Below are positions 9,111 to 53,334 of a stretch of DNA of 53,334 nucleotides, piece by piece. The stretch is from Thermoleophilia bacterium (lineage in GTDB: Bacteria > Actinomycetota > Thermoleophilia > UBA2241). Under the pieces are notes generated by a model. The model saw only the letters and a program-made list of their open reading frames with translations. It was not told where the DNA came from and did no database searches. The position numbers and the translations under genes are program-made. The stretch is taken from positions 1 through 53,334 of the forward strand of contig DASUMX010000253.1 in the NCBI GenBank assembly GCA_036277455.1, in the 5' to 3' direction. Each line of letters begins with the position of its first letter. Within the stretch, counting starts at the first letter, position 1.

Positions 9111-10496
9111 TCAGTACCCCTTGAGGATGTCGATCATTATCTCCGTGGCCCTGACCGCGTAGTCGCGCGGCACGGTGAGCGGCGGCATGAAGCGGAACAC
9201 GTTCGCGTGCCGCCCGCATGGCGTCATGAGGATGCCGCTGTTGAGCAGCTTGAAGGCGATCTCGGCGACCTTCTCGCCGGCCAGCGGCTCCTTGGTGTCG
9301 CGGTCCTCGACCACTTCGATGCCGACCATCAGGCCGTTGCCGCGCACGTCGCCGATGACGGGCACGTTCGGCATGGCGTCGACGAACATCCCCTTGATCT
9401 CCTCGCCCAGGACGGCGGCGCGACCGATCAGGTCGGTGGCGGGATCGGTGAGGATGTCGATGTTGGTCATCGCGACCTCGCACCCCATCGCGTTGCCGGC
9501 GAAGGTGCTCGGCTGCGAGCCCTCACGCAGCGCCCCTTCCATCTCGGAGCGATAGGTGACTCCGGCCATGGGCATGTCGCCGCCCATGCCCTTGCCCCAC
9601 GTGAGCATGTCGGGGACGACCTTGGAGTGCTGGACGGCCCACATCCTGCCGGTGCGGCCGGCGCCCGACTGCACTTCGTCGGCGATGTACAGGCACCCGT
9701 TCTTCTCGCAGGCCGCCTTGATCATCTCCAGGAACTCCGGCGGGGGCGCGATGTAGCCCCCCTCGCCCTGCTGCGACTCGATGACCACGGCGGCGACGTC
9801 GTCGGCGCCCGTGTACGGGCCGTTGAGGATGTCGTCCACGTACTTGCCGCACTGGACGTCGCAGCCCGGGTACTCCAGGCCGAACGGGCAGCGGTAGCAG
9901 TACGCGTACGGCAGGTGCTGGACGCCGGCGATCAGCGGGCCCCAGCCGTGGCGGTAGTTGTAGGACGTGGTCATGGCCGCGGTGCCGCACCAGACGCCGT
10001 GGTAGGCGCCGTGGAAGGCGATGAGCTGAGAGCGGCCGGTGTAGGCGCGGGCGAACTTGATCGCCGTCTCGACGGCGTCGCTGCCTGCCTGATAGACGGC
10101 CGTGTGGCACTCGCCGGCAAGACCGTCGGGCATGATGCCCGAGACCTTCCTGGCAAGCTCGATGCGCTTGGGGTTGGTGATGTCCGTGGTGTGCATGATG
10201 ACGTCGCACTGGCGCCGGATGGCCGCGAGGACCTTGGGGTGGTTGCGTCCCACGGCGTTGACCGCCACGCCCGCGGCCATGTCGATGTACATGTTGCCGT
10301 CGGCGTCCTTGACGGTCACGCCCTTGCCCTGCTCGAGGATGACAGGGAAGCCGCCGCCGCCGCGAGTGAACGATTCGTACCTGGCCGACTCCTCCATCAG
10401 TGCGAGCACCTTGGGACCCGGCGCCTCGGTCACCATGCTCGGCGCATCCGGCCAGGACAGCTCCATCAGGTGTGCTTCGAGTGCTTCAGCGTTCAT
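9111..10496 (-). CDS. Class-III PLP-dependent aminotransferase (omega/beta-amino-acid or aminoacyl-CoA transaminase type)
   Basis: Motifs FHGAYHG, DEVQSGAGRTGRMWA and TWGKGMGGDMPMAG (PLP-lysine region). I prefer the ATG at 10496 (GAGG 8 nt upstream) over the track's GTG at 10514. Confidence 0.85.
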   Translation of the reverse strand: MNAEALEAHLMELSWPDAPSMVTEAPGPKVLALMEESARYESFTRGGGGFPVILEQGKGVTVKDADGNMYIDMAAGVAVNAVGRNHPKVLAAIRRQCDVIMHTTDITNPKRIELARKVSGIMPDGLAGECHTAVYQAGSDAVETAIKFARAYTGRSQLIAFHGAYHGVWCGTAAMTTSYNYRHGWGPLIAGVQHLPYAYCYRCPFGLEYPGCDVQCGKYVDDILNGPYTGADDVAAVVIESQQGEGGYIAPPPEFLEMIKAACEKNGCLYIADEVQSGAGRTGRMWAVQHSKVVPDMLTWGKGMGGDMPMAGVTYRSEMEGALREGSQPSTFAGNAMGCEVAMTNIDILTDPATDLIGRAAVLGEEIKGMFVDAMPNVPVIGDVRGNGLMVGIEVVEDRDTKEPLAGEKVAEIAFKLLNSGILMTPCGRHANVFRFMPPLTVPRDYAVRATEIMIDILKGY

Positions 10497-10558
10497 GGGC
10501 GTCACCTCGTTCACATCGAGTCTGCGACCGATCCGCTCGTCGCGGCAGAGTCGCTACA

Positions 10559-14452: not shown

Positions 14453-15646
14453 CTACCCGACGGCCTCGACGATCGTGGCCATGCCCTGGCCGCCCGCGAT
14501 GCAGATGCCGGCGAGCCCGTACCGCGTGCCACGCCGGCGCATCTCGTAAAGCAGCGTCGTCAGGATACGGGCGCCCGAGCAGCCCAACGGGTGGCCGAGC
14601 GCGATGGCGCCGCCGTTGACATTGACGATCTCCTGGCCGAGCTCCAGCTCCTTGACCACGGCGAGGCTCTGCGCCGCGAAGGCCTCGTTGACCTCGATCA
14701 GGCCGACGTCCGACAGCGCGATCCCGGCGCGCTGGAGGGCCTTGCGCGCAGCGGGCGCCGGGCCGATGCCCATGATGCGCGGGTCCACAGCCGCGGTGGC
14801 CTGCGCACGGATGGTCGCCATGGGCCTGATGCGGCGGGCCTTGGCCGTCTCCGCATCCATGAGCACGAGACACGCGCCACCGTCGTTGCGTCCCGAGGAG
14901 TTGCCCGCGGTGACGCTGCCGCCCTGCTTGAAGACAGGCTTGAGCTTCGCCAGCTGCTCGAGGCTCGTCTTGCGTGGGTGCTCGTCGGTGTCGAACACGA
15001 CGGACTCGCCCTTGCGCTGCGGTACCACGACAGGGACGATCTCATCCTTGAAGCGGCCGCTCGCGATGGCGTCGGCAGCGCGCTCCTGACTCTGCAGCGC
15101 GAACGCGTCCTGCTCCTCGCGCGAGATGTCGTACTTCTCGGCGAGGTTCTCCGCCGTGAGGCCCATGGTGAGGTCGCCGTAGACCTCGTAGGGCTGGGAG
15201 CGCGGCTGGCTCTCCGTGTTGGAGTCGACCACGACGGTGTTGCCGGAGGTGAAGCCGAAGCGGGCGCCGCGCAAGTAGTACGGCGCCAGGCTCATGCTCT
15301 CGACGCCGCCGGCAACGACGATGTCGGCTTCTTCGGCGCGGATGACCTGGACTGCGTTGTGGATGGCCTGCAGCCCGGAGCCGCACTGGCGCATGACCGT
15401 GTAGGCCGGCACCTCCACCGGGAAGCCGGCCTTGAGCGCCGCCACCCGCGCGAGGTTGGCGGCGTCGGCGCTCTGCTTGGTCTGGCCGATGATGACCTCG
15501 TCGACCGACGGCGGCTCCACCCCGGCACGCTCGACGGCGGCGAGGATCACGATCTTCGCGAGCTCCTCGGGCTGGACGCTCTTGATGGCGCCTCCGACGC
15601 GCCCGAGGGCGGTGCGGGCGGCAGAGACGATGACGACGTCACGCAT
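14453..15646 (-). CDS. Acetyl-CoA C-acetyltransferase (thiolase II)
   Basis: 397 aa. MRDVVIVSAARTALG, active-site regions RQCGSGLQA, NEAFAAQ and GHPLGCSGARI, and C-terminal CIAGGQGMA. Confidence 0.9.
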   Translation of the reverse strand: MRDVVIVSAARTALGRVGGAIKSVQPEELAKIVILAAVERAGVEPPSVDEVIIGQTKQSADAANLARVAALKAGFPVEVPAYTVMRQCGSGLQAIHNAVQVIRAEEADIVVAGGVESMSLAPYYLRGARFGFTSGNTVVVDSNTESQPRSQPYEVYGDLTMGLTAENLAEKYDISREEQDAFALQSQERAADAIASGRFKDEIVPVVVPQRKGESVVFDTDEHPRKTSLEQLAKLKPVFKQGGSVTAGNSSGRNDGGACLVLMDAETAKARRIRPMATIRAQATAAVDPRIMGIGPAPAARKALQRAGIALSDVGLIEVNEAFAAQSLAVVKELELGQEIVNVNGGAIALGHPLGCSGARILTTLLYEMRRRGTRYGLAGICIAGGQGMATIVEAVG

Positions 15647-15661
15647 GGGCGACCACCATCC

Positions 15662-16438
15662 TCAGACGAAGGACATCGTGCCGCCGTCCACGTACAGGAC
15701 GGTGCCGGTGATGAAGTCGGAGGCCGCGGAGGCGAGGAAGACCGAGGGGCCCACGAGGTCGTCAACGTGGGCCATTCGCCCCATGGGCACGTTGAGCAGC
15801 ATGCGCTCGTAGCGCGCCGCCTCGTTGCTGATGCGCTCGGCCGTCATCGGCGTCACCGTGATGATGGGGCCGAGCGCGTTGACGAAGACCTTGTGCTGCG
15901 CAAGCTCGCAGGCGAGCTGCTTGGTGATCATGTCGACGGCGCCCTTGCTCGCGCAGTAGGCGCTGTTGCCGCCGAGCGCGCCGCGCTGGCCGCGCACCGA
16001 CGAGAGGTTGATGATCTTGCCCCCGCCCTGCTTGACCATCTGGGCGCCGAAGTGCTTGCAGGACATCATGACGCCCTTGACGTTGACGCTGAAGAGCTTG
16101 TCCCACTCGTCCATCGGGAACTCGGTGGCCGCGCCCTTGACGTTGTACCCGAGCGCGTTCACGAGCACGTCCACGCGGCCACCCATGTCGGCCACCGTGC
16201 TGTCGACCACACCCTTGACGCTGGCCTCGTCCGTACAGTCGATGACGTAGCTGCGCACCGGCTTGCCGGTCGCTTCCACGAGGGCCGCGGCGACCTGCTC
16301 GAGCGCCTCCGGGTTGACGTCCGCCAGCGCGACGTCCGCGCCGTAGCGGATGAGTCCCGCGGCGATGGCCCGGCCCATGCCGCCCGCGCCGCCCACGACG
16401 ACGGCGGACTTGCCCTCGAGTGAAAAGAGATCCTCCAT
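15662..16438 (-). CDS. Short-chain dehydrogenase/reductase (candidate phloroglucinol reductase)
   Basis: 258 aa. Rossmann motif VVGGAGGMGRAI and catalytic YCASKGAV (YxxxK). Classical SDR. Confidence 0.85.
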   Translation of the reverse strand: MEDLFSLEGKSAVVVGGAGGMGRAIAAGLIRYGADVALADVNPEALEQVAAALVEATGKPVRSYVIDCTDEASVKGVVDSTVADMGGRVDVLVNALGYNVKGAATEFPMDEWDKLFSVNVKGVMMSCKHFGAQMVKQGGGKIINLSSVRGQRGALGGNSAYCASKGAVDMITKQLACELAQHKVFVNALGPIITVTPMTAERISNEAARYERMLLNVPMGRMAHVDDLVGPSVFLASAASDFITGTVLYVDGGTMSFV

Positions 16439-16455
16439 TGCCCGGTCCCCTTCCC

Positions 16456-17313
16456 TCAGTACTTCTTGACGACGCCGAGGATCTCGCGAGCCTCGTCGGG
16501 CGTGGCAGGCTCGAGATTGAGCTCCCTGGCGATGCGGACGGTCCGTTCGACAAGCTGCGCGTTGCCCTCGGCAAGCACGCCCTTCTTGTAGTAGATGTTG
16601 TCCTCAAGCCCGACGCGCGCGCAGCCGCCCATGATCATGCCCATGGTGGTGATGGGAAGCTCGGCGGCGCCGGTGGCCGTCGTGTTGAAATAGGCGTCCT
16701 GCGGCATGAACTGGTACATCGAGTACAGGGTGTCGGGGTTCGCCTCGATCGCGCCCTGATGCATCATGCCGAGCACGAAGTTGATGTAGTACGGCGGCTC
16801 GATCAGGTCCTTCTTGATGAGATTGTGCACGTCCCGGTACATGCTCTGCGAGTAGCACTCCATCTCGGGCTTGATGTGCATCTCTTTCATCTTGGCCGCC
16901 CACGCCTCGATGTCTTTGGTCATGTTCGAGAAGGGCTCTCCGGCGTTCGGACCCGTCTGACGCATCAGCGTTCCCATGTTGAGCGAGGCCATCTCCGGGT
17001 CGGCGTCCAGACACGAGACGCGCTCCTCGATGGAGAGGTTGGTCCCGCCGCCGGTCGAGAACTGGACGATGACTTCCCTGCACTCGGCCTTGACGGCAGC
17101 CTGGATCTCGGCGAACTTCTCCTTCGTGCCGGCGGGCTTGCCCTGCTCGTCACGGGCGTGGATGTGGACGATCGCAGCGCCGGCGTCGTAGCACTCACGG
17201 GAGGCGCGCGCGATCTCGTCCGGCTGCTCCGGCACGTTGGGGTTCATGGCCTTGTTGACGAACGCGCCGTTGAGCGACGCGGTGATGATGACTTTGCCTC
17301 GCGGGAGCTTCAT
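16456..17313 (-). CDS. Beta-keto acid cleavage enzyme (BKACE, DUF849 family; candidate triacetate acetoacetate-lyase)
   Basis: The ATG at 17313 is preceded by GGAGGGA (the track starts at a GTG at 17328). VIITASLNGAF...IVHIHARDEQGKP and the TIM-barrel BKACE pattern are present. Confidence 0.8.
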   Translation of the reverse strand: MKLPRGKVIITASLNGAFVNKAMNPNVPEQPDEIARASRECYDAGAAIVHIHARDEQGKPAGTKEKFAEIQAAVKAECREVIVQFSTGGGTNLSIEERVSCLDADPEMASLNMGTLMRQTGPNAGEPFSNMTKDIEAWAAKMKEMHIKPEMECYSQSMYRDVHNLIKKDLIEPPYYINFVLGMMHQGAIEANPDTLYSMYQFMPQDAYFNTTATGAAELPITTMGMIMGGCARVGLEDNIYYKKGVLAEGNAQLVERTVRIARELNLEPATPDEAREILGVVKKY

Positions 17314-17384
17314 GGTCCATCCCTCCACTTCTTGCCGGGTGAGCCGGCCGGTCTCCGTGACTTCGCACGGCGCGCAGGCCGGTC

Positions 17385-18344
17385 TCAGACGCGCTTGTAG
17401 ATCAGGTCCTTCGACTGGTTGAAGACCTCGATGAGGGCATCGTCGCGGGTCCTGAGGACCTCACGCAGGTCTCTGTCGCTGTAGTCGAAGAAACCCTTAC
17501 CGCTCTTGACGCCCAGCTCGCCCTTCTCGACGTGCCCGACGAGGCTGCTCGGCGCATTGTCGATCGGCGGCTCGAGGAAGTCCGAGTTCTGCAGGTTGTT
17601 CAGACTCAGGTCGAGACCCGTGAAGTCATACCGCTGCACGAATCCCAGCACCATCGCCCGCGGGATGATGCTCGCCTTCACCGCAAGGTCGAGTTGTTCG
17701 GCAGTCATGTAGCCGTTGTCGAGGAGGAAGAAGACCTCGCGGCCGATTATGCGCAGGAACCGGTTGATGCAGAAACCCGGGACGAACTTCTCCATGACCA
17801 CGGGCACGCGGTCGACCTTCTTGAGCAGTGCGACGACGAGCTCGACCGTCTCGTCCGAGGTCGACTCACCCTTGACGACCTCAACGAGCGGGATGATCTG
17901 CGGCGGCGCGAACCAGTGAGCGATGACGGTGTCGGGCAGACGCCGCTCGGGGACCACCTGGTAGATGTCGAGGTACGACGTGTTGCTCGTGAAGATGGCG
18001 CCGTCCGGACACGCCCGGTCCAGGTCGGCGAACACCGCGCGCTTCGCCTCCAGGTTCTCGGCGATGCTCTCGATGACGAGGTCGGCGCCGGCGCCGGCCT
18101 CTTCGACCGACTGCGTCGTGGTGATACGAGCCAGCGCTGCCGACACGTCGTCGCGGCTGAGGAGGCCGTGCCCCGCGAACGTCTGCATGTTGGCGGCGGT
18201 GACGGACATCGCCTTTTCGAGCGTCGCCGCGGAGCGTGAGTACAGTGAGACCGGGTGTCCCGCACAGGCGAACACCTGGGCAAGACCTGGTCCCATGGTG
18301 CCGGCCCCGACGACTGCTACCTTCTTGACGTCCATGACATCCAC
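17385..18344 (-). CDS. 3-hydroxyacyl-CoA dehydrogenase-family NAD-dependent dehydrogenase (free beta-hydroxy-acid or acyl-CoA substrate)
   Basis: 319 aa, GTG start preceded by GAGGAG. KKVAVVGAGTMGPGLAQVFA Rossmann motif, with both the 3HCDH N- and C-domain pattern. First gene of the operon. Confidence 0.85.
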   Translation of the reverse strand: MDVMDVKKVAVVGAGTMGPGLAQVFACAGHPVSLYSRSAATLEKAMSVTAANMQTFAGHGLLSRDDVSAALARITTTQSVEEAGAGADLVIESIAENLEAKRAVFADLDRACPDGAIFTSNTSYLDIYQVVPERRLPDTVIAHWFAPPQIIPLVEVVKGESTSDETVELVVALLKKVDRVPVVMEKFVPGFCINRFLRIIGREVFFLLDNGYMTAEQLDLAVKASIIPRAMVLGFVQRYDFTGLDLSLNNLQNSDFLEPPIDNAPSSLVGHVEKGELGVKSGKGFFDYSDRDLREVLRTRDDALIEVFNQSKDLIYKRV

Positions 18345-19461: not shown

Positions 19462-21174
19462 TCAGCTCGTGAACATCGCGTCCAGGTCGGCCTCGGCGAC
19501 GTCGTACCGGGTACCGGACGGCAGGACCGCCTCCTCCGTGATGAACGCCGGAGGGCGGTCGTCCTTGGCCGTGAAGCCGGCGCGGCGGTTGAAGTCGCGC
19601 TCCCCGCGTACGATCTGGTCGCCCATCCTGATGAGGTAGTCCTCGGGGAGCGCCTCGCCGGTGATGGCCGCCGCAGCCTTGACGAACTCCCCCTGCAGCT
19701 CCGGCATGTCGAGCGCGGGGAGTGTCGCGAAGAGGCACATGCCCAGCGAGTCGATCGCGGCGAAGTAGCACTGCAGGAACTCGGAGATCTGTGCCTGCCC
19801 CTCGGCGGAAGCGGGATCGTAGGTCGGATTGGCCGGACTGGGCAGGGCGTTGCCCGCGGTGTGGTCGGCGCCCTGCGGGCTGGTGATGTAGGTGGTGCCG
19901 GTGCCCTTGAGCACGCGCGGGTCGTAGGCCGCGAAGCTCTGGCCTTTGACCGCGGGAACGCGGGCGACGCCGAGGCGCTGCCCGGTCGTGACGCAGCCGT
20001 CGGCGAGCATGCGCGCGTCGGCGTCGCCGTCCCTGAGCTTGCTGAGCAGCGCGAACGCCCCTTCGCCGTCGCCCCAGTCGAGCAGGCCGCCCTCCATGGC
20101 GACGCCCATGGCGGCGCCGACTTCCATCGTGTCGAGCCCGAGGTCGTCGCAGAGGCGATCGAGCCGTGCGATCTGGTCGAGGTCCTTGATGTGGCAGTTC
20201 GAGCCCATCAGCCCGAGCGTCTCGAACTCGACGCCGGAGGTGATGACCTCGCCGGCGTCGTCCGTGTACACCTGCGAGCAGTTGATGATGCAGCCCTTCA
20301 TGCAGCTGTGCTTGGTGGCCCCATTGGGACGCGCGGAGATGATCTCGACCATGTGCTCGCCGCTGATGTCCGGCGCGTTCTCCCAGGTCCCGGCGGAGAA
20401 GTTCCTGGTGGCCAGGCAGCCCATGGACTGCGTGACGGTGACGAGGAACGCCGAGCCGAGCGCCTCGAGGGCGGCCATGGCCGGATGCGAGTGGATGCCG
20501 GTGGCGAGAGCCTTGGAGGCCTCCTTGAGGGCGTCCTTGTCGGCGACGACGACGCCCGGCCCCCCTGCGGCGTCGACGACGATCGCCTTGAGGTTCTTGG
20601 AGCCCATCACGGCGCCCAGACCGCCGCGTGCAGCCGCGCGCATGTGATGGTCGGGCGTGGTGACGAGGACCGCGGCGGCCTTGGCGCCCATCTCCCCCGC
20701 CGGGCCGGTGCAGATGAGCGAGACCTTGTCGCCGTACTGCTCCCAGAGGCGCTCCGCGGTGGCGAACGAACCGAGGCCGGCGAGCTCCGGCGCCGGGACG
20801 AGCGTGCCGCCGCCCGCCGTGACCACCAGGACCGACGTCTCGTCGGCCTGCCCCGTCACCTTGAGGGCGCGCAGGCCGAGCTCGGCCAGCGCACGCGCGG
20901 CCGAGCCGCCGGAATTTGCCTCCTTGATGCCTCCGGTCAGCGGGCTCTTGCCCCCCACGGAGAGACGCCCGCCGTTGGGGACGACGGTGCCCGCGAAGAG
21001 TCCGGCGGCATACACCAGGACGTTGCCGGGTCCGAGGGGATCGGCCTCGGGATGGACTTCACCGCAGACGATGGCCGAGGTCAGGCCATGGCCACCCAGC
21101 GGCTCGAGGTCCGCACCCAGCGGCTCCCTCGCCACCGCGCCACTCGTCAGGTCGACGTTGAGGAGGTCGGTCAC
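19462..21174 (-). CDS. Aldehyde:ferredoxin oxidoreductase family (tungstopterin, 4Fe-4S)
   Basis: 570 aa. AOR N-domain GGHGLTSAIV...GGRLSVGGKSPLTGGIKEANSGG, a Cys cluster HSCMKGCIINC, and the later DSLGMCLF. Only 26 nt separate it from iclR. Confidence 0.85.
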   Translation of the reverse strand: MTDLLNVDLTSGAVAREPLGADLEPLGGHGLTSAIVCGEVHPEADPLGPGNVLVYAAGLFAGTVVPNGGRLSVGGKSPLTGGIKEANSGGSAARALAELGLRALKVTGQADETSVLVVTAGGGTLVPAPELAGLGSFATAERLWEQYGDKVSLICTGPAGEMGAKAAAVLVTTPDHHMRAAARGGLGAVMGSKNLKAIVVDAAGGPGVVVADKDALKEASKALATGIHSHPAMAALEALGSAFLVTVTQSMGCLATRNFSAGTWENAPDISGEHMVEIISARPNGATKHSCMKGCIINCSQVYTDDAGEVITSGVEFETLGLMGSNCHIKDLDQIARLDRLCDDLGLDTMEVGAAMGVAMEGGLLDWGDGEGAFALLSKLRDGDADARMLADGCVTTGQRLGVARVPAVKGQSFAAYDPRVLKGTGTTYITSPQGADHTAGNALPSPANPTYDPASAEGQAQISEFLQCYFAAIDSLGMCLFATLPALDMPELQGEFVKAAAAITGEALPEDYLIRMGDQIVRGERDFNRRAGFTAKDDRPPAFITEEAVLPSGTRYDVAEADLDAMFTS

Positions 21175-21332: not shown

Positions 21333-24165
<2,833 letters not shown>

Positions 24166-42531: not shown

Positions 42532-42601
42532 ACGGCTCTCTAGGATACATCCTCGGTGCACGCTGGCGGGGGGCAGAAGCGCTTGGTAGCATGGAGCGAC
42601 G

Positions 42602-44425
42602 ATGCTGATGAGCAGGAAGACCTGGCTCGTGCTCGCAGTCGCCGCTCTCATCGCGGTGTCCTTCGCCGCGAGCGGGATCGCCGCGAAGAAGTCGTCCGAG
42701 GACCGGCCAAGGTACGTGACGCGCGGGCTTGACTACCTGCACGCGCGGCAGCTGGACAACGGAGGATTCTCGACCGCGGCGAACACAGCCTGGGCCGTCC
42801 TGGGCGCGGTGGCCAGCGGAGAGCGCATGGGCTCCAGCGCGTGGACCAAGAAGGGCAAGAACCCGTTCGAGTACCTGCAGAGCGTCAACCACGAGGCGGC
42901 GGCCACCAGCGCCACCGTGGACAATGCGCCCGTCTACTACGCCCGCATGATCATGGCCTACGTAGCCGTGGACCGGCGAGACCGGGTCTTCGTCGCCGGC
43001 ACCCCGCACGTCGACCTCCTCGCCAAGCTGTACACCTACCAGGACATGGCCGACGGCTCGTCCACCAAAGGCAGCTTCTCGCCGTCCAGCTCCACGCGGA
43101 ACTTCGACGCCGTGAACACCACTTCGTGGGCCGCCCTCTCCATGTACAACTTCGGCCTGTCCACCGAGGAGCGCTTCCTGCTCGCCGAGACGTGGCTGGC
43201 GGGCATGCAGAGCGGGTCGGACGGCGGGTTCCCCGCGGAGGCCGGCAAGAGCTCGGACTGCCGCACCACGGCGCTCGCCATCCAGGCGCTCAGCGTCGGG
43301 CCCGGCAGCCTGTCGTGGGACGCGGCGGCGGCGCGGCAGTTCCTCAAGGACAACCAGAACGCCGACGGCGGGTTCCCGGTGTCGCCCGGCGGCCGCACCG
43401 ACGCCGAAGCCACGTCGGCCGCCATCCAGGCCATCCTCGCCCTCGGCGAGCATCCGGACGACGCCTTCTGGATGGCCGGCATCAACACCCCGACGTACGC
43501 CCTCGGCGTCCTCCAGCAGACCAACGGCGCGTACCGGCTGACCTCCCGCGAGCGCCTGCGCCCACTCGCCGTGACCAGCTGGGCGCTGACGGCGATGCGG
43601 CGCAAGAGCTTCGCCTCGTTCCCCAGGAACATCGGCGTGGCGGAGACGGCGTTCAAGTTCCGCCCCGTGTTCCGCACCGTCTCGCCCAAGAACGGCGCCA
43701 AGTTCAAGTCGCATGTAGTCCTGATCAGGGCGACCTACACGGATTTCTATCCCAAGGGGACCGGCATCAGGCCCTCGGCCTGCCGGCTCTACGTGAACAA
43801 CGAGAACAAGAGCCGCCCGGCGGACATCGAGAAGTACGGGCTCCGCCTGCTGCTCAAGAACGTCCCCAACGGCGCGCACACCTACAAGATCGAGTTGCGC
43901 GACCAGGCCGGTAACGTCAAGGTGATCGAGCGCCGGTTCACCGTCGCGGTCCCGAGCCCGTCTCCCACGTACACGCCGGCCCCCCGGCCTACCTACAATC
44001 CCGGCCCTGTCTACCCGACGGTACTTCCCACCAGCGTCCCGACGCCCAGGCCGTACACCACGCCCACCCCCACGCCCACACCGACGCCGTACTCCACGGT
44101 GACGCCGTACCCGTACTACAGCCCGTCGCCCGCGGCGAGCCCCGTGGTCACAGGGTCGCCGCTCCCCTCGCCCAGCGCGTCGGCGAGCCCAGCGGGAGCA
44201 GGTGACGGCGAAGAAGGTAGTGCCGCAGGCTTCGTGGGTGGTACCCTGCTCGCCATGCTTCCCATCGGCGCCGTCATCTCCTATCTGCTCCTGCAGCGCC
44301 GCGAGGAGAGCCTCGCTGCGGCCAGCCAGGGTACGGTGCTGGACGGCGGAGGCAGCGCCTGGGATCGGTTCAAGCAGACCCTCGCCCGGTCCAAGGACCT
44401 GACGCGACCTTCGTCGCGGGAATGA
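42602..44425 (+). CDS. Exported, C-terminally membrane-anchored protein with prenyltransferase/squalene-cyclase-type alpha/alpha-toroid repeats, an Ig-like module and a Pro-rich stalk
   Basis: 607 aa. N-terminal signal MLMSRKTWLVLAVAALIAVSFAASGIAA. Repeats RQLDNGGFS, MQSGSDGGFP and NQNADGGFP. A beta-rich segment FKFRPVFRTVSPKNG...KIELRDQAGNVKVIERRFTV. About 90 aa of P/T/S/Y-rich linker, then TM FVGGTLLAMLPIGAVISYLLL and a charged tail. Confidence 0.7.
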   Translation: MLMSRKTWLVLAVAALIAVSFAASGIAAKKSSEDRPRYVTRGLDYLHARQLDNGGFSTAANTAWAVLGAVASGERMGSSAWTKKGKNPFEYLQSVNHEAAATSATVDNAPVYYARMIMAYVAVDRRDRVFVAGTPHVDLLAKLYTYQDMADGSSTKGSFSPSSSTRNFDAVNTTSWAALSMYNFGLSTEERFLLAETWLAGMQSGSDGGFPAEAGKSSDCRTTALAIQALSVGPGSLSWDAAAARQFLKDNQNADGGFPVSPGGRTDAEATSAAIQAILALGEHPDDAFWMAGINTPTYALGVLQQTNGAYRLTSRERLRPLAVTSWALTAMRRKSFASFPRNIGVAETAFKFRPVFRTVSPKNGAKFKSHVVLIRATYTDFYPKGTGIRPSACRLYVNNENKSRPADIEKYGLRLLLKNVPNGAHTYKIELRDQAGNVKVIERRFTVAVPSPSPTYTPAPRPTYNPGPVYPTVLPTSVPTPRPYTTPTPTPTPTPYSTVTPYPYYSPSPAASPVVTGSPLPSPSASASPAGAGDGEEGSAAGFVGGTLLAMLPIGAVISYLLLQRREESLAAASQGTVLDGGGSAWDRFKQTLARSKDLTRPSSRE

Positions 44426-44432
44426 GCCGTCA

Positions 44433-45440
44433 GTGAACGACCTTCAGCAGCTCATCTACGACATCGCCAGGATCCTTCTCTGGCCCGTCCTCATCGCCGC
44501 CGTCATCTGCCTCGTCTGGGTGCTCATCGAGCTCGGCGTGCTGCTGTACGAGCTGTGGCTGCGGTTCCGTTACCGCGACCTTGACGCGCTCGAGGTCCGC
44601 GCCCTGCGCGCGCGCAAGGCGTTCCGCGACGGCAAGCCGCGCACGGCCTACAGGTACCTGCAGGAGAACACCTACTCCCTGGTCGTCGTCCGCTTCCTCT
44701 ACGATCTCATCCGCAACTACCAGACGGAGCGCCTGGCGGCCAAACCGCTGAAGCTCCTGCAGGAGTACGAGTTCTACACCATCAAGCGACTCGAGCGGAC
44801 CCGGATCCTCGTGCGCATCGGCCCCATGCTGGGCCTCATGGGCACGCTGATACCGCTGGCGCCCGCCCTGGTGGGTCTGGCCAGCGGCGATGTCCAGGAG
44901 CTCTCCGACAACCTGGTCACCGCGTTCTCTGTGACCGTGATCGGCCTGCTCATCGGCGGCCTCGCGTTCCTGGTCAGCATCGTGCGCGACCGCCTCTACT
45001 CCCAGGACATCTCGGACATGGAGTATCTGCTGGAGCTGCTCGAAGGCTCCGATGTGAGACTGCGCTCCGGCCGTCGCCTCTCCAAGACCGGCGTCTGGGA
45101 CACCGAGGCGCCGGTCGAGTACGAGGTCGCCGACGAGGACGCGGAGCGCACCGCGATCATCACGCTGCCGGCGACGCCGGACGAGCCGCTGCTCCCCGTG
45201 GCCACCACGCCCGGCCGCAACGGCGGCTCCGGACAGGCCGCCGCGCAGCGCTCGCCGGCGGTCCCCGCAGGGCCGGCGCCGGCGGCTCGGCCGGACGACG
45301 GCGTCGGCCTCACGTTCGACGACCCCAGCATGGACTGGACCCGGGACGACGACCCGTTCGCCGGCCTCGGCCTCATCGACCCGGAGGGCACGGACGATCC
45401 CAAGCCCCGCGGGTCCGGTGGGCCCTTGCGCCGTCGCTGA
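44433..45440 (+). CDS. MotA/TolQ/ExbB-family proton channel protein
   Basis: 335 aa, GTG start 8 nt after the upstream stop. TM1 ILLWPVLIAAVICLVWVLIELGVLL. The signature pair is RIGPMLGLMGTLIPLAPAL and VTAFSVTVIGLLIGGLAFLVSIV. A C-terminal tail of about 120 aa is acidic and Pro-rich. Confidence 0.75.
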   Translation: MNDLQQLIYDIARILLWPVLIAAVICLVWVLIELGVLLYELWLRFRYRDLDALEVRALRARKAFRDGKPRTAYRYLQENTYSLVVVRFLYDLIRNYQTERLAAKPLKLLQEYEFYTIKRLERTRILVRIGPMLGLMGTLIPLAPALVGLASGDVQELSDNLVTAFSVTVIGLLIGGLAFLVSIVRDRLYSQDISDMEYLLELLEGSDVRLRSGRRLSKTGVWDTEAPVEYEVADEDAERTAIITLPATPDEPLLPVATTPGRNGGSGQAAAQRSPAVPAGPAPAARPDDGVGLTFDDPSMDWTRDDDPFAGLGLIDPEGTDDPKPRGSGGPLRRR

Positions 45441-45443
45441 GCG

Positions 45444-46046
45444 ATGCCGGCGAACGACGACCACTCCAGGCTGCAGAACCTCGGCACCGTGATGGGCGCG
45501 CCCGAGAGCGGCTTACGCTACATGCGGCGGCGCAGGGTCGGCACGGCCGACCGCAACGGCGACCCGCTCTACGGTCTCGCCAATCTGTTCGTGGTGGCCA
45601 TCGCGCTCGCCGTGGGCCTTCTCGTCGCGGCCCTCGCGGCGGCCGGTGTCAGTGGCTTGCTCACCAGCGAGAACATGACGATCGTCACCAACCCGGGCAC
45701 GCCCGAGATGCAGGTGATCGTCAAGGAGGGTGACCAGATCACCAAGCTCGACATGCAGTCGGGGGCTGAGGTGGCGGGCGTGGGAACGCTCATCGGCTCG
45801 TTCTACAGGCTCGCCGACGGCACCGTCGTGTACGTCCCGGCGGGGACGACGGCGCCGACCGGCTCCACGCCGGTACCCGGGACGACCCCTGCGCCCGTCG
45901 TGACGCCCACGCCGGGGATCACGCCGACGCCGGGAGCGACGCCGACGCCGGGAGCGACCATCCCTCCCACGGCGCCCCCGACACCCGGCACGACGGCCTT
46001 CCCCACGCCGACGCCGGCGGTGACGCTCACCCCCGCTTCGCTCTGA
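45444..46046 (+). CDS. Single-pass partner protein, DUF2149-like, with extracytoplasmic domain and Pro/Thr-rich tail
   Basis: 200 aa; ATG 4 nt after the exbB-like stop. [31 protein letters not shown] (Asp at the membrane boundary) resembles the DUF2149 N-terminus as I remember it. The C-terminal 60 aa are TP/PG repeats. The true start could be a later Met. Confidence 0.55.
45921..45956 (+). repeat. Perfect 18-bp tandem duplication inside the Pro/Thr-rich tail coding region
   Basis: acgccgacgccgggagcg occurs at 45921-45938 and again at 45939-45956, encoding TPTPGA twice. Confidence 0.85.
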
Positions 46047-48661: not shown

Positions 48662-49696
48662 TCAGCCGGACACGGCCTCCCGCAACGCGCCGGCAAGAGC
48701 GTCGACGTCCCCCGCGCTGGTCTGCCAGGAGCACATCCAGCGCACGACCCCCGCATCCTCGTCCCACACGTAGAAGTGGTACCGCTCGTGCAGCCGCTCG
48801 ATGACGGCCGCCGGCAGCGCCGCGAAGACCGCGTTGGCCTGCACCGGATACGCGAGCGTGACACCCGGTGTGGTGGCGACCGCATCGCCGAGCCGCCGGG
48901 CCATGGCGTTGGCGTGCCCCGCGGTCTCCCTCCAGAGGTCGCCTTCGAACAGGCGGAGCAGCTGCGCCGAGATGTAGCGCATCTTCGAGGCCAGCTGCGT
49001 CCCCTGCTTGCGCGCATACAGGTAGCCGGCAGCGAGCTCCGGCCGGAAGAAGACGGCGGCCTCGGCGCCGAGCAGGCCGCTCTTGGTCCCCCCCAGCGTC
49101 AACACGTCGACGCCACAGTCCGTGGTCAGCTCCCGCAGCCCAAGTCCCAGCGCCTGCGCCGCGTTGACGAGCCGGGCCCCGTCCATGTGGAGGAGCAGCC
49201 CGGCCTCGTGTGCCGTCTCCGCCAGCGCGGCGATCTCCTGCGGAGCGTAGACCGTGCCCAGCTCGGTCGACTGGGAGATCGAGACGACCCGCGCCTGCAC
49301 GTGATGCTGGTCGCCGAAGCCGACGAGCCGGGGGCGCAGCAGCTCCGGCGTCAGCTTGCCGTCCGGCGTGGGCACGTCGACGAGCTTGGCGCCGGCGATG
49401 CGCTCCGGAGCGCCGCACTCGTCCACGTTGATGTGCGCCGTCTCCGGGCAGATCACCGCCTCGTAGGGGCGAAGCAGTGCGGCGAGGACGGTCACGTTGC
49501 CGCCCGTGCCGTTGAAGACGGGGAAGGCCTCGACGTCGCCGAGCACCTCGCGAAGGCGCTCGCGCAGGCGCCCGGTCCAGGGGTCGTCCCCATAGGCGGG
49601 CGCCCATCCCTCGTTGGCGGACGCCACGGCCTCGAGAACGGCGGGATGCGCTCCCGCGTAGTTGTCGCTGGCGAAGAGCGTGAGCGGGGCACTCAC
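48662..49696 (-). CDS. ltaE: Low-specificity L-threonine aldolase (PLP-dependent)
   Basis: The GTG at 49696 (inside ORF 48662..49993) overlaps the upstream stop (GTGA). FASDNYAGAHPAVLEAV, FNGTGGNV, and the PLP-lysine region LTLGGTKSG. Confidence 0.8.
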   Translation of the reverse strand: MSAPLTLFASDNYAGAHPAVLEAVASANEGWAPAYGDDPWTGRLRERLREVLGDVEAFPVFNGTGGNVTVLAALLRPYEAVICPETAHINVDECGAPERIAGAKLVDVPTPDGKLTPELLRPRLVGFGDQHHVQARVVSISQSTELGTVYAPQEIAALAETAHEAGLLLHMDGARLVNAAQALGLGLRELTTDCGVDVLTLGGTKSGLLGAEAAVFFRPELAAGYLYARKQGTQLASKMRYISAQLLRLFEGDLWRETAGHANAMARRLGDAVATTPGVTLAYPVQANAVFAALPAAVIERLHERYHFYVWDEDAGVVRWMCSWQTSAGDVDALAGALREAVSG

Positions 49697-51762
49697 GTCG
49701 CGACCTTCTTCTTCAGCGACTCGTAGAACATGTTGAGAGGGAACTCGTCGTCCAGCACCCTGTCGATCCAGGCGCGCGGCTCGGCCTCGTCGGAGTAGAC
49801 GCGCGCCTCCTTGCGCCACTGGGAGCCGACGTTGGGGGTCACGTACGGGGAGATGAGGTCGTGCGCGGCGATCCAGTACGTCACCTTGCTGGTCTCGATC
49901 CCGTGCCGATACAGCTGCTCGACCTGCCCGCGCAGCTCGGCGACGGCGGAGTCGATCCGCTCCCAGTCGATGAGCAGCCGGTTGTCGGTCCACCGCACGA
50001 CGCCGTGCGCGTGCAGAAAGCCGAAGAGCAGCTGGCCGCCCAGACCGTCGTAGTTGCGCACGCGGTTGCCGGTGATGGGGAAGCGCAGGAGACGGTCGAA
50101 GAGGATCGCGTACTTGACGTAGCGCGCGAAGGGGAAACTCGCCGCCAGCTCATCGGCCGTGCCGTAGGTGGCGAGGTCGACGCGCAGCTCCTCGAGCGAG
50201 TACATCCAGTACGGCAGCCGCTGGCGGATCATGAACGGGTCGAAGGGCAGGTCGCCGTGGCTGTGCCAGCGATCGTGGATCATGTCCCAGAGGATGTACG
50301 TCTCGAGCGCCAGGTCCGGCGACGACGCCAGCGCGCGGGCGTCCGGCGGCAGGTCGATGTCGAGGACCTCCGCGCCCCAGAGCGTGGTGCGCCGATAGCG
50401 CGCCGACTCGCGGTCACAGAAGATCGCGCCGAAGTGGTTGGTAGGCCGCTCGGCCACGCTCACCGTCTCGGGGAAGAGCACCGCGCACTCGCTGTCGTAG
50501 CCCGCGGTGTTGTCCACCAGCTGCACCGGGACGAACTTGGGGTTGTCGTAGAGCTCGCGTTCGATCTGCGAGACGAACTCCGGCCAGGGAGTCCGTGTGA
50601 TCAGCGCCTCGAAGCGCGTGTCGGGCGAGCCGTTGGGCGTGTACATCGGAAAGACGACGAGGTGCTCCACGCCGTCGCGCCGCTCGAGGTCGGGGCGGAA
50701 GAGGGCGAGCGAGTCCTTGAAGTCCGGCTTGCCGCAGCCGCTCTCCACCCAGGCGTCCAGGTCCGCGACGACCTGGGCCAGGTACTCCTTCTGGTGCGGG
50801 AACCGGGGCGCGAGGTCCGCGATGGCCTCGGCCATCGCCACCACGAGCGCCCGCACCTCTCCGGCATCGTGCCGGCTGAGGTCGACCTCGCCCTTGGGCT
50901 CCTGCAGAAGACGCAGCGCGCCGGTCGCCTCCTTGAGGTGCAGCCACGCCGGATCCTGCGCCGCCTCCGAGACGATGGGCGTCGCGTCGGCGCGGAATGC
51001 GGCCAGGGACACCCAATACAGGAGGTTCATCCAGAGCCGGCGGTTGTCGCGCCGCGACAGGTAGTCGTCGCCGAAGAGGTCCGAGTCGGCGACGACCACG
51101 ACGCGGCCCTCCTTGTACTGCGTCGCCGCGGCGAGCGCAGCGCCGGGCGGGTCCGCCGTCGCGCGCGTGCGCAGTACGACGGCGCCGGGGTCGTCTGTGG
51201 ACAGAGCCCCGGCGCGGTAGAACCCGACCTCTCCGACGCCGTGCAGGATGCCGGGGTCGGCGGGTTTCGGCGCCGACTCACCCACCACCCACGAGGGGAC
51301 CCCGTCCCCCGGGTCGTACTCGAACACGATCGTGTTCTCGAACCGGACCCCGAAGGGGGCGAGGAGGTCGTTGAGGTTCCCGCCGTACTTGTCCTCCTCC
51401 TCTTCTCCCAGCACGACGAGGCCGCCGCCGCGGGCGACGAAGTCCTGCACGGCGGCGATCTCCGCCGGCGAGAACACAGGGGAGTCTGCGCCCACCGTGC
51501 GCTCCCATTTGGGATCGCTCGGATGGGCGATGACGAGGACGTCCACGTCCGCCAGCGCCACTTCATCCAGAGGCCGGCCGGCCGTGGTGACGGCGTCGAA
51601 GTCTCGGGCCGTGAGCTCCGCGGCGGCTGTCGCGTAGGAGGCGGCCGCCGGATGGGACGGCCGCATCCTGGCCGCCGCCTCCGGCCGGATCGACCAAGCC
51701 TCTCCGTGATGTTCGTCGAACAGCACCTTGGCCACGGTGCGCTGGCGCAGGGCATCGAGCAT
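49693..51762 (-). CDS. Uncharacterised 689-aa two-domain protein: N-terminal GATase1-like/DUF4350-like domain plus a large C-terminal domain with a His-rich motif
   Basis: Internal ATG at 51762 of ORF 49693..52164, preceded by GGCAGGAGG. The N-domain pattern is DVLVIAHPSDP...FSPAEIAAVQDFVARGGGLVVLGE...VVVVADSDLFGDD. The C-domain contains WDMIHDRWHSHGDLPFDPFM. I recognise no characterised family for the C-domain. Confidence 0.6.
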   Translation of the reverse strand: MLDALRQRTVAKVLFDEHHGEAWSIRPEAAARMRPSHPAAASYATAAAELTARDFDAVTTAGRPLDEVALADVDVLVIAHPSDPKWERTVGADSPVFSPAEIAAVQDFVARGGGLVVLGEEEEDKYGGNLNDLLAPFGVRFENTIVFEYDPGDGVPSWVVGESAPKPADPGILHGVGEVGFYRAGALSTDDPGAVVLRTRATADPPGAALAAATQYKEGRVVVVADSDLFGDDYLSRRDNRRLWMNLLYWVSLAAFRADATPIVSEAAQDPAWLHLKEATGALRLLQEPKGEVDLSRHDAGEVRALVVAMAEAIADLAPRFPHQKEYLAQVVADLDAWVESGCGKPDFKDSLALFRPDLERRDGVEHLVVFPMYTPNGSPDTRFEALITRTPWPEFVSQIERELYDNPKFVPVQLVDNTAGYDSECAVLFPETVSVAERPTNHFGAIFCDRESARYRRTTLWGAEVLDIDLPPDARALASSPDLALETYILWDMIHDRWHSHGDLPFDPFMIRQRLPYWMYSLEELRVDLATYGTADELAASFPFARYVKYAILFDRLLRFPITGNRVRNYDGLGGQLLFGFLHAHGVVRWTDNRLLIDWERIDSAVAELRGQVEQLYRHGIETSKVTYWIAAHDLISPYVTPNVGSQWRKEARVYSDEAEPRAWIDRVLDDEFPLNMFYESLKKKVAT

Positions 51763-51904
51763 TGGGGGCCTCCTGCCCTTCGAGGTCGTGACGCGACTTG
51801 GGCGCGCGACGTGTCGCGTCCTGGTGAAGGAGTTCTTCCTGCCCCGGCGGCGGCCCCAAACCTGCCGACGCCGACGGCGGCGCGGCCGGCGCCGGGACGG
51901 CCTG

Positions 51905-52327
51905 CTAGAGGTCGCGGCGCTTGGTGAGGACGAGGACCGTGCCGCCCTCGTCCGGCTTGCGCAGGTCGAAGTCGTCGACCACCGCGCGGATGATGGAGAT
52001 GCCCATACCGCCTTCGGCCAGCTGATCGGTGAGCGTGCGGCACTCCGGACAGTCGTCGTCGTCCTCGTGGAAGCCCCCGCCCTGGTCCTTGATGAGCACC
52101 GTGACGCAGTCGCTGTGCACGGTGAACTCGAGGTGGACCTGACCCTGGTCGTGGTCGTACGCATGCCGGACGGAGTTGGAGCAAGCCTCCGTGAGCGCCA
52201 GCTTGAGGTCGGCGACCGCGTCGTCCGAGTATCCGCCGCGTGAGCGGAGAAGGCCGGACAAAGCGAGCCGACCGAGCGACACGAACTCGGCCTTCGCGGG
52301 GATATCGAGCTTCACGTAGTCTTCCAC
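51905..52327 (-). CDS. Anti-sigma regulatory factor-type Ser/Thr kinase (RsbW/SpoIIAB-like HATPase domain)
   Basis: 140 aa. N-box-like LALTEACSNSVRHAY and G-box region EGGMGISIIRAVVDDF. GTG start. Confidence 0.65.
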   Translation of the reverse strand: MEDYVKLDIPAKAEFVSLGRLALSGLLRSRGGYSDDAVADLKLALTEACSNSVRHAYDHDQGQVHLEFTVHSDCVTVLIKDQGGGFHEDDDDCPECRTLTDQLAEGGMGISIIRAVVDDFDLRKPDEGGTVLVLTKRRDL

Positions 52328-52395: not shown

Positions 52396-53334
52396 TCATT
52401 TCTTGAGGGAGGTCCGGACGTTCACGTTCTGTCCGCACATCGCACAGAATGTTCCCCGGAGCGCGACATCCTCAACCGCCGACCCGGTACGGCGGACCAG
52501 GAGCCGTTTACAGTTCGGGCAGACCGTGTTCTCCCCTTCATGACCGGGCACGTTGCCGAGGTACACGAACTCCAGGCCGGCGTCGTGACCGGTCTTGACC
52601 GCCGCCTCGAGCGTGGCGATCGGCGTCGGCGGGAGATGCGCGAACTCGAGGTGGGGCATGAAGCGCGTCACGTGCCAGGGCGTCTCCGCGCCGAGCCGCT
52701 CCACGATCCACCCGGCGATGCCGCGCAGCGTCGCGGCGTCGTCGTTGAAGGTGGGGATGACGTTGGTGACGATCTCGACGTGGCAGCCGTGCTCCGTCTT
52801 GGCACGCTCGGCCGACTCCAGCACCGGCGTGAGATCGGGGATCTTGCACAGATCCTTGTACTGCTGATCCGTGAAGCCCTTCACGTCGACGCGGTAGGCG
52901 TCGATGTGCGGCCCGAGGATCGAGAGGGCGTCATCGGTGATGTAGCCGTTGGTGACCATCACCGTGTACAGCCCATGCTCGTGCGCCGCCTGGGCGCCGT
53001 CCAGGATGTACTCAAGCCAGATCGTGGGCTCGTTGTACGTCCAGGCCACACCTTGGCACTCGTTGTTCGCGGCCAGCACGGAGAGGTTGCGGATGGGCAG
53101 GTCGCGCAGGTCGCGCGTGGCCTCCGCCGGGTCCGCGTGCGCGATCTGCCAATTCTGGCAGTGGCGGCAGGCGAAGTTGCAGCCCAGGCTGCCGAGCGAG
53201 AGCACCGTGGTGCCGGGGAAGAAGTGGTAGAGCGGCTTCTTCTCGATGGGGTCGGCGGCGACGCTGCACACCTTGGCGTAGGTGATGGCGTAGAGGACGC
53301 CGTCGCGGTTGACCCGCGCCCGGCACACGCCGCT
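52396..53334 (-). CDS. AmmeMemoRadiSam-system radical SAM enzyme, 5' end cut by the window edge
   Basis: DPIEKKPLYHFFPGTTVLSLGSLGCNFACRHCQNWQIA contains the CxxxCxxC cluster in its typical context, with a C-terminal Cys pair CPNC...CAMCG. The frame stays open to base 53334, and the family's N-terminal Cys-rich segment is missing. Confidence 0.8.
   Translation of the reverse strand, partial: SGVCRARVNRDGVLYAITYAKVCSVAADPIEKKPLYHFFPGTTVLSLGSLGCNFACRHCQNWQIAHADPAEATRDLRDLPIRNLSVLAANNECQGVAWTYNEPTIWLEYILDGAQAAHEHGLYTVMVTNGYITDDALSILGPHIDAYRVDVKGFTDQQYKDLCKIPDLTPVLESAERAKTEHGCHVEIVTNVIPTFNDDAATLRGIAGWIVERLGAETPWHVTRFMPHLEFAHLPPTPIATLEAAVKTGHDAGLEFVYLGNVPGHEGENTVCPNCKRLLVRRTGSAVEDVALRGTFCAMCGQNVNVRTSLKK

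Follow-up and report, generated by a model that had tools for sequence, protein, structure and literature searches.

A stalked toroid, an ExbB-type channel and a DUF2149 protein in Thermoleophilia: a candidate energised surface module related to corrinoid acquisition operons

The closest described counterparts of the genes considered here are HmuU and HmuV, a protein of the MotA/TolQ/ExbB family and a DUF2149 protein respectively, which sit in the hmuYRSTUV heme operon of Bacteroidota (PMC11681262, PMC10434189). The two have been drawn as energisers of the outer-membrane receptor HmuR (PMC12583661), and a review regards their role as unclear (PMC12094164). The DUF2149 family also corresponds to COG4744, which is described as 'linked to TolQ' and as conserved in methanogens (PMC9425974). 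A second point of comparison is the energy-coupling factor (ECF) operon lsa1836-1840 of L. sakei, which encodes two extracellular proteins, one geranylgeranyltransferase-like and termed 'transcobalamin alpha-like', the other a 'beta-like' DUF4430 protein, and which has been tied to heme uptake (10.1101/864751). In the full-text literature we found no paper connecting the ExbB/DUF2149 pair with an ECF, B12 or prenyltransferase-like toroid system. Here we describe three genes, A, B and C, in a 53,334-nucleotide stretch of DNA (hereafter the window; contig DASUMX010000253.1 of assembly GCA_036277455.1) from an uncultured Thermoleophilia, a soil or sediment actinobacterium, in which such a pair follows the gene of a stalked toroid surface protein. 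We propose, at a probability of roughly one half, that A, B and C form one operon, that this operon is a stripped-down derivative of a Thermoleophilia corrinoid acquisition operon, and that B and C would constitute an ExbB/ExbD-like energiser acting with a surface tetrapyrrole binder.

The open reading frame (ORF) listing of the window shows three co-directional genes on the + strand, separated by 7 nt between A and B and by 3 nt between B and C. Gene A (42602..44425, +) encodes an exported, C-terminally anchored toroid protein of 607 aa, gene B (44433..45440, +) a channel protein of the MotA/TolQ/ExbB family of 335 aa, of HmuU type, and gene C (45444..46046, +) a single-pass DUF2149 protein of 200 aa, of HmuV type. 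The arrangement and the family assignments had been put forward in an earlier reading of the sequence (the original prediction), and they have held: A matches Prenyltrans PF00432 with 29.0 bits (cutoff 26.5), which places it in the toroid superfamily, B matches MotA_ExbB PF01618 with 29.8 bits (cutoff 22.9, E = 5.6e-7) and C matches DUF2149 PF09919, the family of COG4744 and HmuV, with 70.1 bits (cutoff 27.1). The pairing of B and C is not new in itself, since it is the same pair as HmuU/HmuV and the archaeal COG4744-TolQ; the original prediction had presented DUF2149 as a partner of no assigned function, and while the pairing turns out to have been published already, the function of HmuU and HmuV is itself only hypothesised (PMC12583661, PMC12094164). 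The likeness extends to the gene order, to the signatures 'GPMLGLMGTLIP' in B and 'DP....NLFDV' in the C family, and to an association with tetrapyrrole handling. However, the window has neither HmuY, HmuR, HmuS and HmuT nor an outer membrane, the host being presumably monoderm and devoid of a TonB-dependent receptor; the pair is partnered by a toroid in place of a CobN-type dechelatase; a Pro/Thr-rich extension is found on C and a long acidic tail on B; and the transmembrane (TM) Asp of the family is replaced by Val.

The CobN association is seen in three loci outside the triad's own lineage. In L005 the order is TonB-dependent receptor, polytopic protein, MotA, DUF2149 and CobN; in L004 it is a CobN-like protein, a polytopic protein, MotA, DUF2149, a TonB-dependent receptor, CbiK and cobalamin biosynthesis genes; and in L136 it is CobN, DUF2162, MotA and DUF2149. 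We refer to L004 and L005, which are linked to TonB receptors, as diderm-type. The CobN-like partner of L004 resembles protein A in ending in a C-terminal TM anchor. The possibility that A is the equivalent of HmuT was considered and set aside, as the toroid is not similar to the HmuT-like polytopic proteins encoded in L004 and L005. The DUF2149 ORF of L004 (4906-5448) is an exact tandem duplication of the N-terminal half, including the TM segment, and may be an assembly artefact.

The three genes belong together well beyond the window. Searching one genome for each GTDB species with protein B gave 52 loci, almost all of them in metagenome-assembled genomes (MAGs) of uncultured Thermoleophilia or Actinomycetota, and the neighbours were called with toroid and DUF2149 hidden Markov models (HMMs) built in this analysis. 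MotA is immediately preceded by the toroid gene in 48 of the 52 loci and immediately followed by DUF2149 in 48 of the 49 that could be tested. Metagenomes were scanned by the signature of this MotA subtype, 'GPM[LI]GLMG / TLIP..PAL': DUF2149 follows MotA in 48/48 testable loci, and the toroid precedes it in 19/40, which are the Thermoleophilia-type ones. By these counts, B and C go together obligately throughout the family, and A, B and C make up a lineage-wide triad, as the original prediction would require. Additional MotA genes, usually with DUF2149 and without a toroid, occur in Thermoleophilia MAGs (L030, L043, L052 and L054). Their contexts are unrelated and uninformative, and include a GGDEF/HD-GYP sensor, flavodoxin-like proteins and an ABC_cobalt-like membrane protein. 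L030 and L057, both from a single MAG, have identical coordinates and percent identities in their MotA and DUF2149 matches, so that one of them may be a mis-assembly.

The connection with corrinoids comes from the relatives of the triad, which fall into two types occupying one chromosomal slot between the gene of a family 2 glycosyltransferase (GT2) and parB. Type I, which comprises the window and about 42 species, contains the toroid, MotA and DUF2149 genes only. Type II (n = 12) comprises L006, L047, L051, L053, L055 and L056 and the metagenome loci L078, L081, L082, L083, L089 and L090, with the order DUF4430-like exported protein, DUF4430 lipoprotein, EcfT, fused EcfAA', S component, toroid, MotA and DUF2149. 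ECF genes precede the triad in the 12 loci, and the DUF4430 and EcfT genes are seen where the upstream sequence suffices (L006, L047, L051, L053, L056, L078) or mostly so (L089). The Rfam Cobalamin riboswitch RF00174 stands at the head of the operon, on the same strand, in 7/7 type II loci whose upstream sequence reaches far enough (L006, 83 bits; L056, 84; L047, 83; L051, 81; L053, 60; L078, 82; L089, 68; gathering score 31.5 bits), and it was found neither in the type I loci L001 and L007 nor in L048. In L053, cobA, the gene of an ATP:corrinoid adenosyltransferase, adjoins the riboswitch operon. These type II relatives resemble the L. sakei-type ECF operons in encoding an exported toroid, DUF4430 proteins and an ECF transporter; no MotA/DUF2149 pair is described in the latter, and the window differs from them further in having neither ECF nor DUF4430 genes. 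The corrinoid-like cargo suggested in the original prediction has thereby received strong contextual support, from these operons and from the CobN neighbours, although it is not shown for the window copy. The first gene past the riboswitch in L053 (1700-3235) encodes a DUF4430-like exported protein whose C-terminal half appears by eye to be S-layer homology (SLH)-like; if the SLH repeats hold, the product would be a wall-attached B12 binder.

In a neighbour-joining (NJ) tree of the MotA proteins, rooted at the midpoint, type II is basal and paraphyletic, and type I, to which the window belongs, forms one derived clade. Read most simply, the tree means that the ancestors of the window lost the riboswitch, the DUF4430 genes and the ECF genes at this locus, a polarity that is provisional given how coarse a midpoint-rooted NJ tree is.

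Protein A has the layout of a binding head held at a distance from the membrane. The AlphaFold2 (AF2) model of residues 1-450, built with 30 homologues (pLDDT 86.6), shows a helical toroid at about 37-332, with pLDDT mostly above 90, and an eight-stranded beta-sandwich at 357-448. Against the PDB, Foldseek places single-domain class II terpene cyclases (drimenyl diphosphate synthase and squalene-hopene cyclase, SHC) and the beta subunit of Rab geranylgeranyltransferase at the top for the toroid, and CopC and the Ig-like domains of sulfite dehydrogenase for the sandwich. Profile searches of the PDB match the toroid to SHC-like domains at E = 1e-19 to 1e-20 (3e-19 in one search), while the Big_7/Big_13 Pfam matches among the homologues of A are faint. 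In terms of coordinates, the alpha/alpha-toroid with its three Q/N-x-x-(D/N)GGF repeats, defined by AF2, Foldseek and PDB profiles, covers residues 31-345 (42692..43636, +), and the linker with the Ig-like beta-sandwich, defined by AF2 and Foldseek, residues 346-450 (43637..43951, +). A Pro/Thr/Ser-rich stalk of about 85-90 aa, read in the sequence, occupies residues 451-535 (43952..44206, +), followed by the TM anchor ('LLAMLPIGA') and a cytoplasmic tail at residues 536-607 (44207..44422, +), both conserved by alignment. Hydropathy identifies a signal peptide and a TM segment at 540-565, so that sequence, model, fold comparison and hydropathy agree on the layout originally described. Protein A is related to the SCO2321 family of actinobacterial membrane toroids (NCBIfam NF053823) without being a member, at 60.1 bits and thus far below the 300-bit equivalog cutoff.

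The distribution of conservation along A is informative. The stalk is the least conserved part (column conservation 0.55-0.63 versus 0.6-0.8 elsewhere), and within type I the TM segment and tail are conserved on a par with the globular domains, with many nearly invariant columns. Between the window protein and the type II toroid of L056 the TM segment is 61% identical and the ectodomain 37-40%; with L053 the values are 48% and 30-35%. By analogy with the TM segment of TonB and its contacts with ExbB/ExbD, this conservation fits a specific intramembrane contact of the anchor, and does not prove it.

Protein A shares the alpha/alpha-toroid fold and QW-like repeats with class II terpene cyclases and prenyltransferase beta subunits, but it has neither the DxDD acid nor the Zn ligands of these enzymes, and it is extracellular, stalked and anchored. 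The motif DxD[DT], which carries the general acid of terpene cyclases, is found in 0/30 type I family members (the window protein and 29 homologues), and no conserved Cys, as expected for the Zn site of prenyltransferase beta subunits, occurs among the same 30. The window sequence 'SDCRTTA' lies at what we take, by eye, to be the 'DVDDTA' site of SHC, and the same site reads 'VDQTA' in the type II toroid of L006 and 'IDQTA' in that of L051. Since A is exported and stalked and the DVDDTA motif is not maintained, it is best read as a non-catalytic binding module. The type II toroids of the basal loci L056 (8204-9970) and L053 (7823-9976) retain an SHC-like 'DVDDTA' though they too are exported and stalked; the remaining type II toroids and the whole of type I are without it.

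Proteins B and C can be compared with the ExbB-ExbD-TonB and TolQ-TolR-TolA systems. Hydropathy of B reveals three hydrophobic segments, and the core of three TM segments comprises residues 1-195. In an alignment with E. coli ExbB, TolQ and MotA, the Pro and Thr of TM2 ('GPMLGLMGTLIP') and the Thr of TM3 are retained; T138 and T168, the equivalents of ExbB T148 and T181, are invariant among the aligned homologues, and the equivalent of ExbB E176 is a Thr. The cytoplasmic tail, residues 196-335 (about 140 aa), is acidic and Pro-rich, as predicted, and ends in 'DDPFAGLG'. This tail (45018-45437 in the window, 9798-9971 in L006, and also in L051) carries a conserved end motif, 'F/LDDPxMxW ... DDPFAxLG', common to type I and some type II loci and not found in the short-tailed copies of L053 and L052; it may be a docking site for a cytoplasmic partner.

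Protein C begins with a basic N-terminus and crosses the membrane once (39-75 by hydropathy, the TM helix at about 41-72); about residues 75-132 form a small beta-rich domain on the outside, and the last 68 aa (133-200) are rich in Pro and Thr, again as had been described. It resembles ExbD and TolR in being a single-pass protein with its N-terminus inside and a similar TM segment, 'NLFDVAxV' aligning with 'FIDVMLV' and 'LLDVLLV', but neither Pfam nor NCBIfam gave a match to the ExbD/TolR family PF02472 that would indicate their periplasmic fold. Only six PDB entries matched a DUF2149 profile; they include the TM peptides of ExbD and TolR, although without significance (E = 3 and 6.8). With the E. 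coli sequences, ExbD D25 and TolR D23 align on the Asp of the DUF2149 motif 'DP....NLF-D-V'. The Asp at this position is essential in ExbD, TolR and MotB. The original prediction had proposed D40, in 'GDPLYG', as its analogue, which is the wrong residue: the ExbD/TolR Asp aligns with position 50, which in the window is Val50 (codon GTG, 45591..45593, +). D40 and P41 (45561..45566, +) form the 'DP' motif at the cytoplasmic start of the TM helix, are invariant among close relatives and are conserved at 90% or more in a wider family alignment. The position-50 Asp is present in 104/121 pattern-matched representatives of 50%-identity clusters and in 119/120 proteins of a profile search, the sole exception there being a pattern mismatch and not a true non-Asp protein; it is also present in 52/52 non-toroid metagenome cases, in the diderm-type L004 and L005 and in 6/6 type II loci checked (five genome loci and L006).

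The third protein, A, combines a TM anchor, a Pro-rich spacer and a globular head, which is the set of parts found in the third protein of the Ton and Tol systems. In contrast to TonB, however, the anchor is C-terminal and not N-terminal, the head is a toroid, and A, B and C have no TonB_C match. The Pfam scan of the triad and its neighbours likewise detected no ExbD, TonB_C, OmpA or flagellar domain, as the original prediction had stated.

We propose that B, most likely as a pentamer, and C, in the role of ExbD/TolR, may form an ion-conducting complex of the HmuU/HmuV type in the inner membrane, driven by the proton-motive force (PMF). Protein A would be the ligand-binding partner, its toroid and Ig-like domain being held beyond the cell wall by the Pro-rich stalk, with TonB-like parts in the reverse chain order. 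Ion flow through B and C could then perform conformational work on the anchor and stalk of A, by which a captured and tightly bound tetrapyrrole, presumably a corrinoid, would be freed toward a membrane importer. In the basal relatives, the importer would be the co-encoded ECF transporter, with the DUF4430 proteins as co-binders. Because the window has Val50 and is without the riboswitch and the DUF4430 and ECF genes, its module may or may not still handle corrinoids and may use a transporter encoded elsewhere, and its ion coupling, if kept, may be altered or weakened.

Several observations weigh against this proposal. An Rfam scan of the whole window gave nothing at gathering score, hence no cobalamin riboswitch, and a tblastn search of the window for DUF4430, EcfT and the S component found none; with no RF00174, EcfT, EcfA or S component, the window locus is not itself a riboswitch-controlled ECF uptake operon for cobalamin. 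Its corrinoid link is by descent only, as the riboswitch, DUF4430 and ECF genes are absent, and the window toroid is about 35-40% identical to the riboswitch-linked toroids, so that the ligand may differ. Transcobalamin, intrinsic factor and haptocorrin gave no match to A in PDB profile searches (E <= 1; E <= 10) and are not within the Foldseek top 50; A has no more in common with B12 carriers than the general alpha6/alpha6 fold. AF2 modelled C poorly (pLDDT 50.6), with a helix at 41-66. The window protein departs at position 50 from the conserved TM Asp both of the DUF2149 'NLFDV' motif and of ExbD/TolR, and it is not alone in this: of the 44 type I genome loci, 29 have Asp there and 15 another residue, and Asn occurs at the position in a single type II locus, the metagenome locus L083.

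The alternative that comes closest, with perhaps a modest chance of being correct, is that the triad is a decaying relic, in which B and C no longer transduce energy, A is a passive binder beside inert partners and the whole is en route to loss. The ExbD-equivalent Asp has been replaced in at least nine separate places on the MotA tree, by T, V, N, Y, L or A and almost only in the ECF-less clade; the nearest relative of the window, L012, has Asp, which points to a recent change in the window; and the locus no longer has its former partners, the riboswitch and the DUF4430 and ECF genes. Against this stand three ORFs that remain intact in about 45 species. In pairwise NG86 comparisons of the window with ten relatives, the ratio of non-synonymous to synonymous substitutions (dN/dS) is 0.19-0.45 for A, 0.10-0.34 for B and 0.09-0.27 for C, and all three genes, that of the Asp-less C included, are therefore under purifying selection. 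Moreover, D40-P41, the TM motifs of B and the TM segment of A are still conserved, and the Asp is kept in two thirds of the type I loci.

Somewhat less probable is that the machine is the same and the cargo another, the type I toroid having been retuned, independently of B12, to heme, a metal chelate or a component of the wall or its glycans. The divergence of type I from type II toroids given above, the dN/dS of A, highest of the three genes, and the loss of B12 regulation in the window's clade are consistent with such a shift, and the MotA/DUF2149 pair serves heme systems elsewhere (HtaA, hmu), as does the toroid, DUF4430 and ECF system linked to heme in L. sakei. Yet the window operon includes no heme-related or otherwise informative gene, the position and architecture of the triad match those of the B12-linked toroids, and the MttB-family enzyme encoded in the window implies that the host probably needs corrinoids.

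We consider it improbable that the triad is a Tol-like module for envelope maintenance or wall remodelling, acting with the divergent cluster of glycosyltransferase, DUF2079 and PMT genes. TolQR-type motors do serve envelope functions in diderms, and the genes found 5' of the triad in divergent orientation (GT2, GT1, LPG_synthase_TM and DUF2079) always adjoin it on the opposite strand. However, the riboswitch and ECF genes of type II loci lie between this cluster and the triad, which indicates separate transcription units; the whole block adjoins parAB-rsmG, so that the adjacency looks positional; and A, B and C have no peptidoglycan-binding or hydrolase domain in Pfam or NCBIfam. The wall remodelling that the original prediction had offered as a second option has accordingly found no specific support. 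Least credible of all is that A is a working terpene cyclase or prenyltransferase with a function unrelated to B and C, since the Pfam and PDB similarity to SHC, drimenyl diphosphate synthase and prenyltransferase beta subunits and the 'DVDDTA' of L056 and L053 are opposed by its export, its stalk and its place outside the membrane, by the missing acid and Cys residues and the altered site in the window and in the type II toroids of L006 and L051, and by its strict synteny with B and C.

Returning to the energised binder that we favour, the motor pair recurs beside other large surface proteins. A diverse DUF2149 profile search returned mostly the window's own lineage, with new contexts only from P0391, P0476 and P0394. 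On the high-GC metagenome contigs L100, L107, L110, L124 and L127, an exported protein with PKD domains adjoins MotA and DUF2149, accompanied by HtaA heme-binding proteins in L107 and L124 and by a Peripla_BP_2/FecCD ABC importer in L127; this group is a second, heme-type context of the pair, probably in monoderm hosts. On the low-GC contigs L133 (3604-11998) and L137 (2217-12020), which may be archaeal, giant CARDB/NosD/beta-helix surface proteins flank the pair. What recurs beside the motor pair is a large protein outside the cytoplasm, in many cases one with a role in tetrapyrrole handling. On L133 and L137, DUF11/BatD-like exported proteins also flank the pair, and a 2245-aa protein of L137 contains a squalene-cyclase-like toroid domain.

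It can be tentatively hypothesised, as a broader and less secure proposition than the one for the window, that a Ton-like force transduction exists in monoderm bacteria, in which an ExbB-like/DUF2149 motor of the cytoplasmic membrane, powered by ion flow, would pull stalked, anchored binders (the toroid, PKD/HtaA or CobN-type proteins) so that very tightly held corrinoid or heme is passed across the wall to importers of the ECF or ABC class, the window triad being the minimal form. Such a system would bear on how single-membrane bacteria move scarce and large cofactors such as B12 and heme across a thick wall to these importers, and on the role of HmuT, HmuU and HmuV in the heme operon of abundant gut Bacteroidota. 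One conserved two-gene motor links both questions, being present in diderms, in probable monoderm Actinomycetota and on archaeal-looking low-GC contigs, and in Thermoleophilia the link is explicit, as the motor lies inside a cobalamin-riboswitch operon with an ECF transporter. With the triad, PMF-assisted uptake of cofactors could be put to the test in a setting that has neither TonB nor an outer membrane. If the proposal is correct, the repeated loss of the canonical Asp would imply a coupling site unlike that of ExbD, TolR and MotB, and the natural Asp-less variants would be built-in mutants for locating ion coupling.

As regards the immediate surroundings of the triad, the divergent intergenic stretch between the GT2 gene (- strand) and gene A (42538..42601) is short and without a riboswitch. 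It contains no match to the sigma-70 consensus, and a promoter and terminator scan of the A-B-C operon gave nothing beyond the shuffle expectation. On the 3' side, parB, parA and rsmG are convergent with the triad. The remaining genes of the window point to anaerobic metabolism, and include those of an aldehyde:ferredoxin oxidoreductase (AFOR), an MttB-family methyltransferase and a beta-keto acid cleavage enzyme (BKACE). MttB is a corrinoid-dependent enzyme family. The methyltransferase gene (22771-24165, -) adjoins those of a beta-eliminating lyase (21333-22736, -) and of AFOR (19462-21174, -), a group which suggests that the host is anaerobic and B12-using. A block at 14453-18344 (-) encodes a thiolase, a short-chain dehydrogenase, BKACE and a 3-hydroxyacyl-CoA dehydrogenase and, grouped with a class III aminotransferase gene at 9111-10514, looks like a cluster for amino-acid or keto-acid fermentation. 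Near the start of the window (286-2886, +) lies the gene of a molybdopterin oxidoreductase with an AhtL-like_1st domain, similar to the large subunit of pyrogallol hydroxytransferase. Downstream of rsmG, at 49693-52164 (-) and 52396-53328 (-), are genes of a large protein, an anti-sigma-type HATPase and a radical-SAM protein; the counterpart of the large protein in L001 has DUF4350 and DUF6421 domains, and the whole block is kept in L001.

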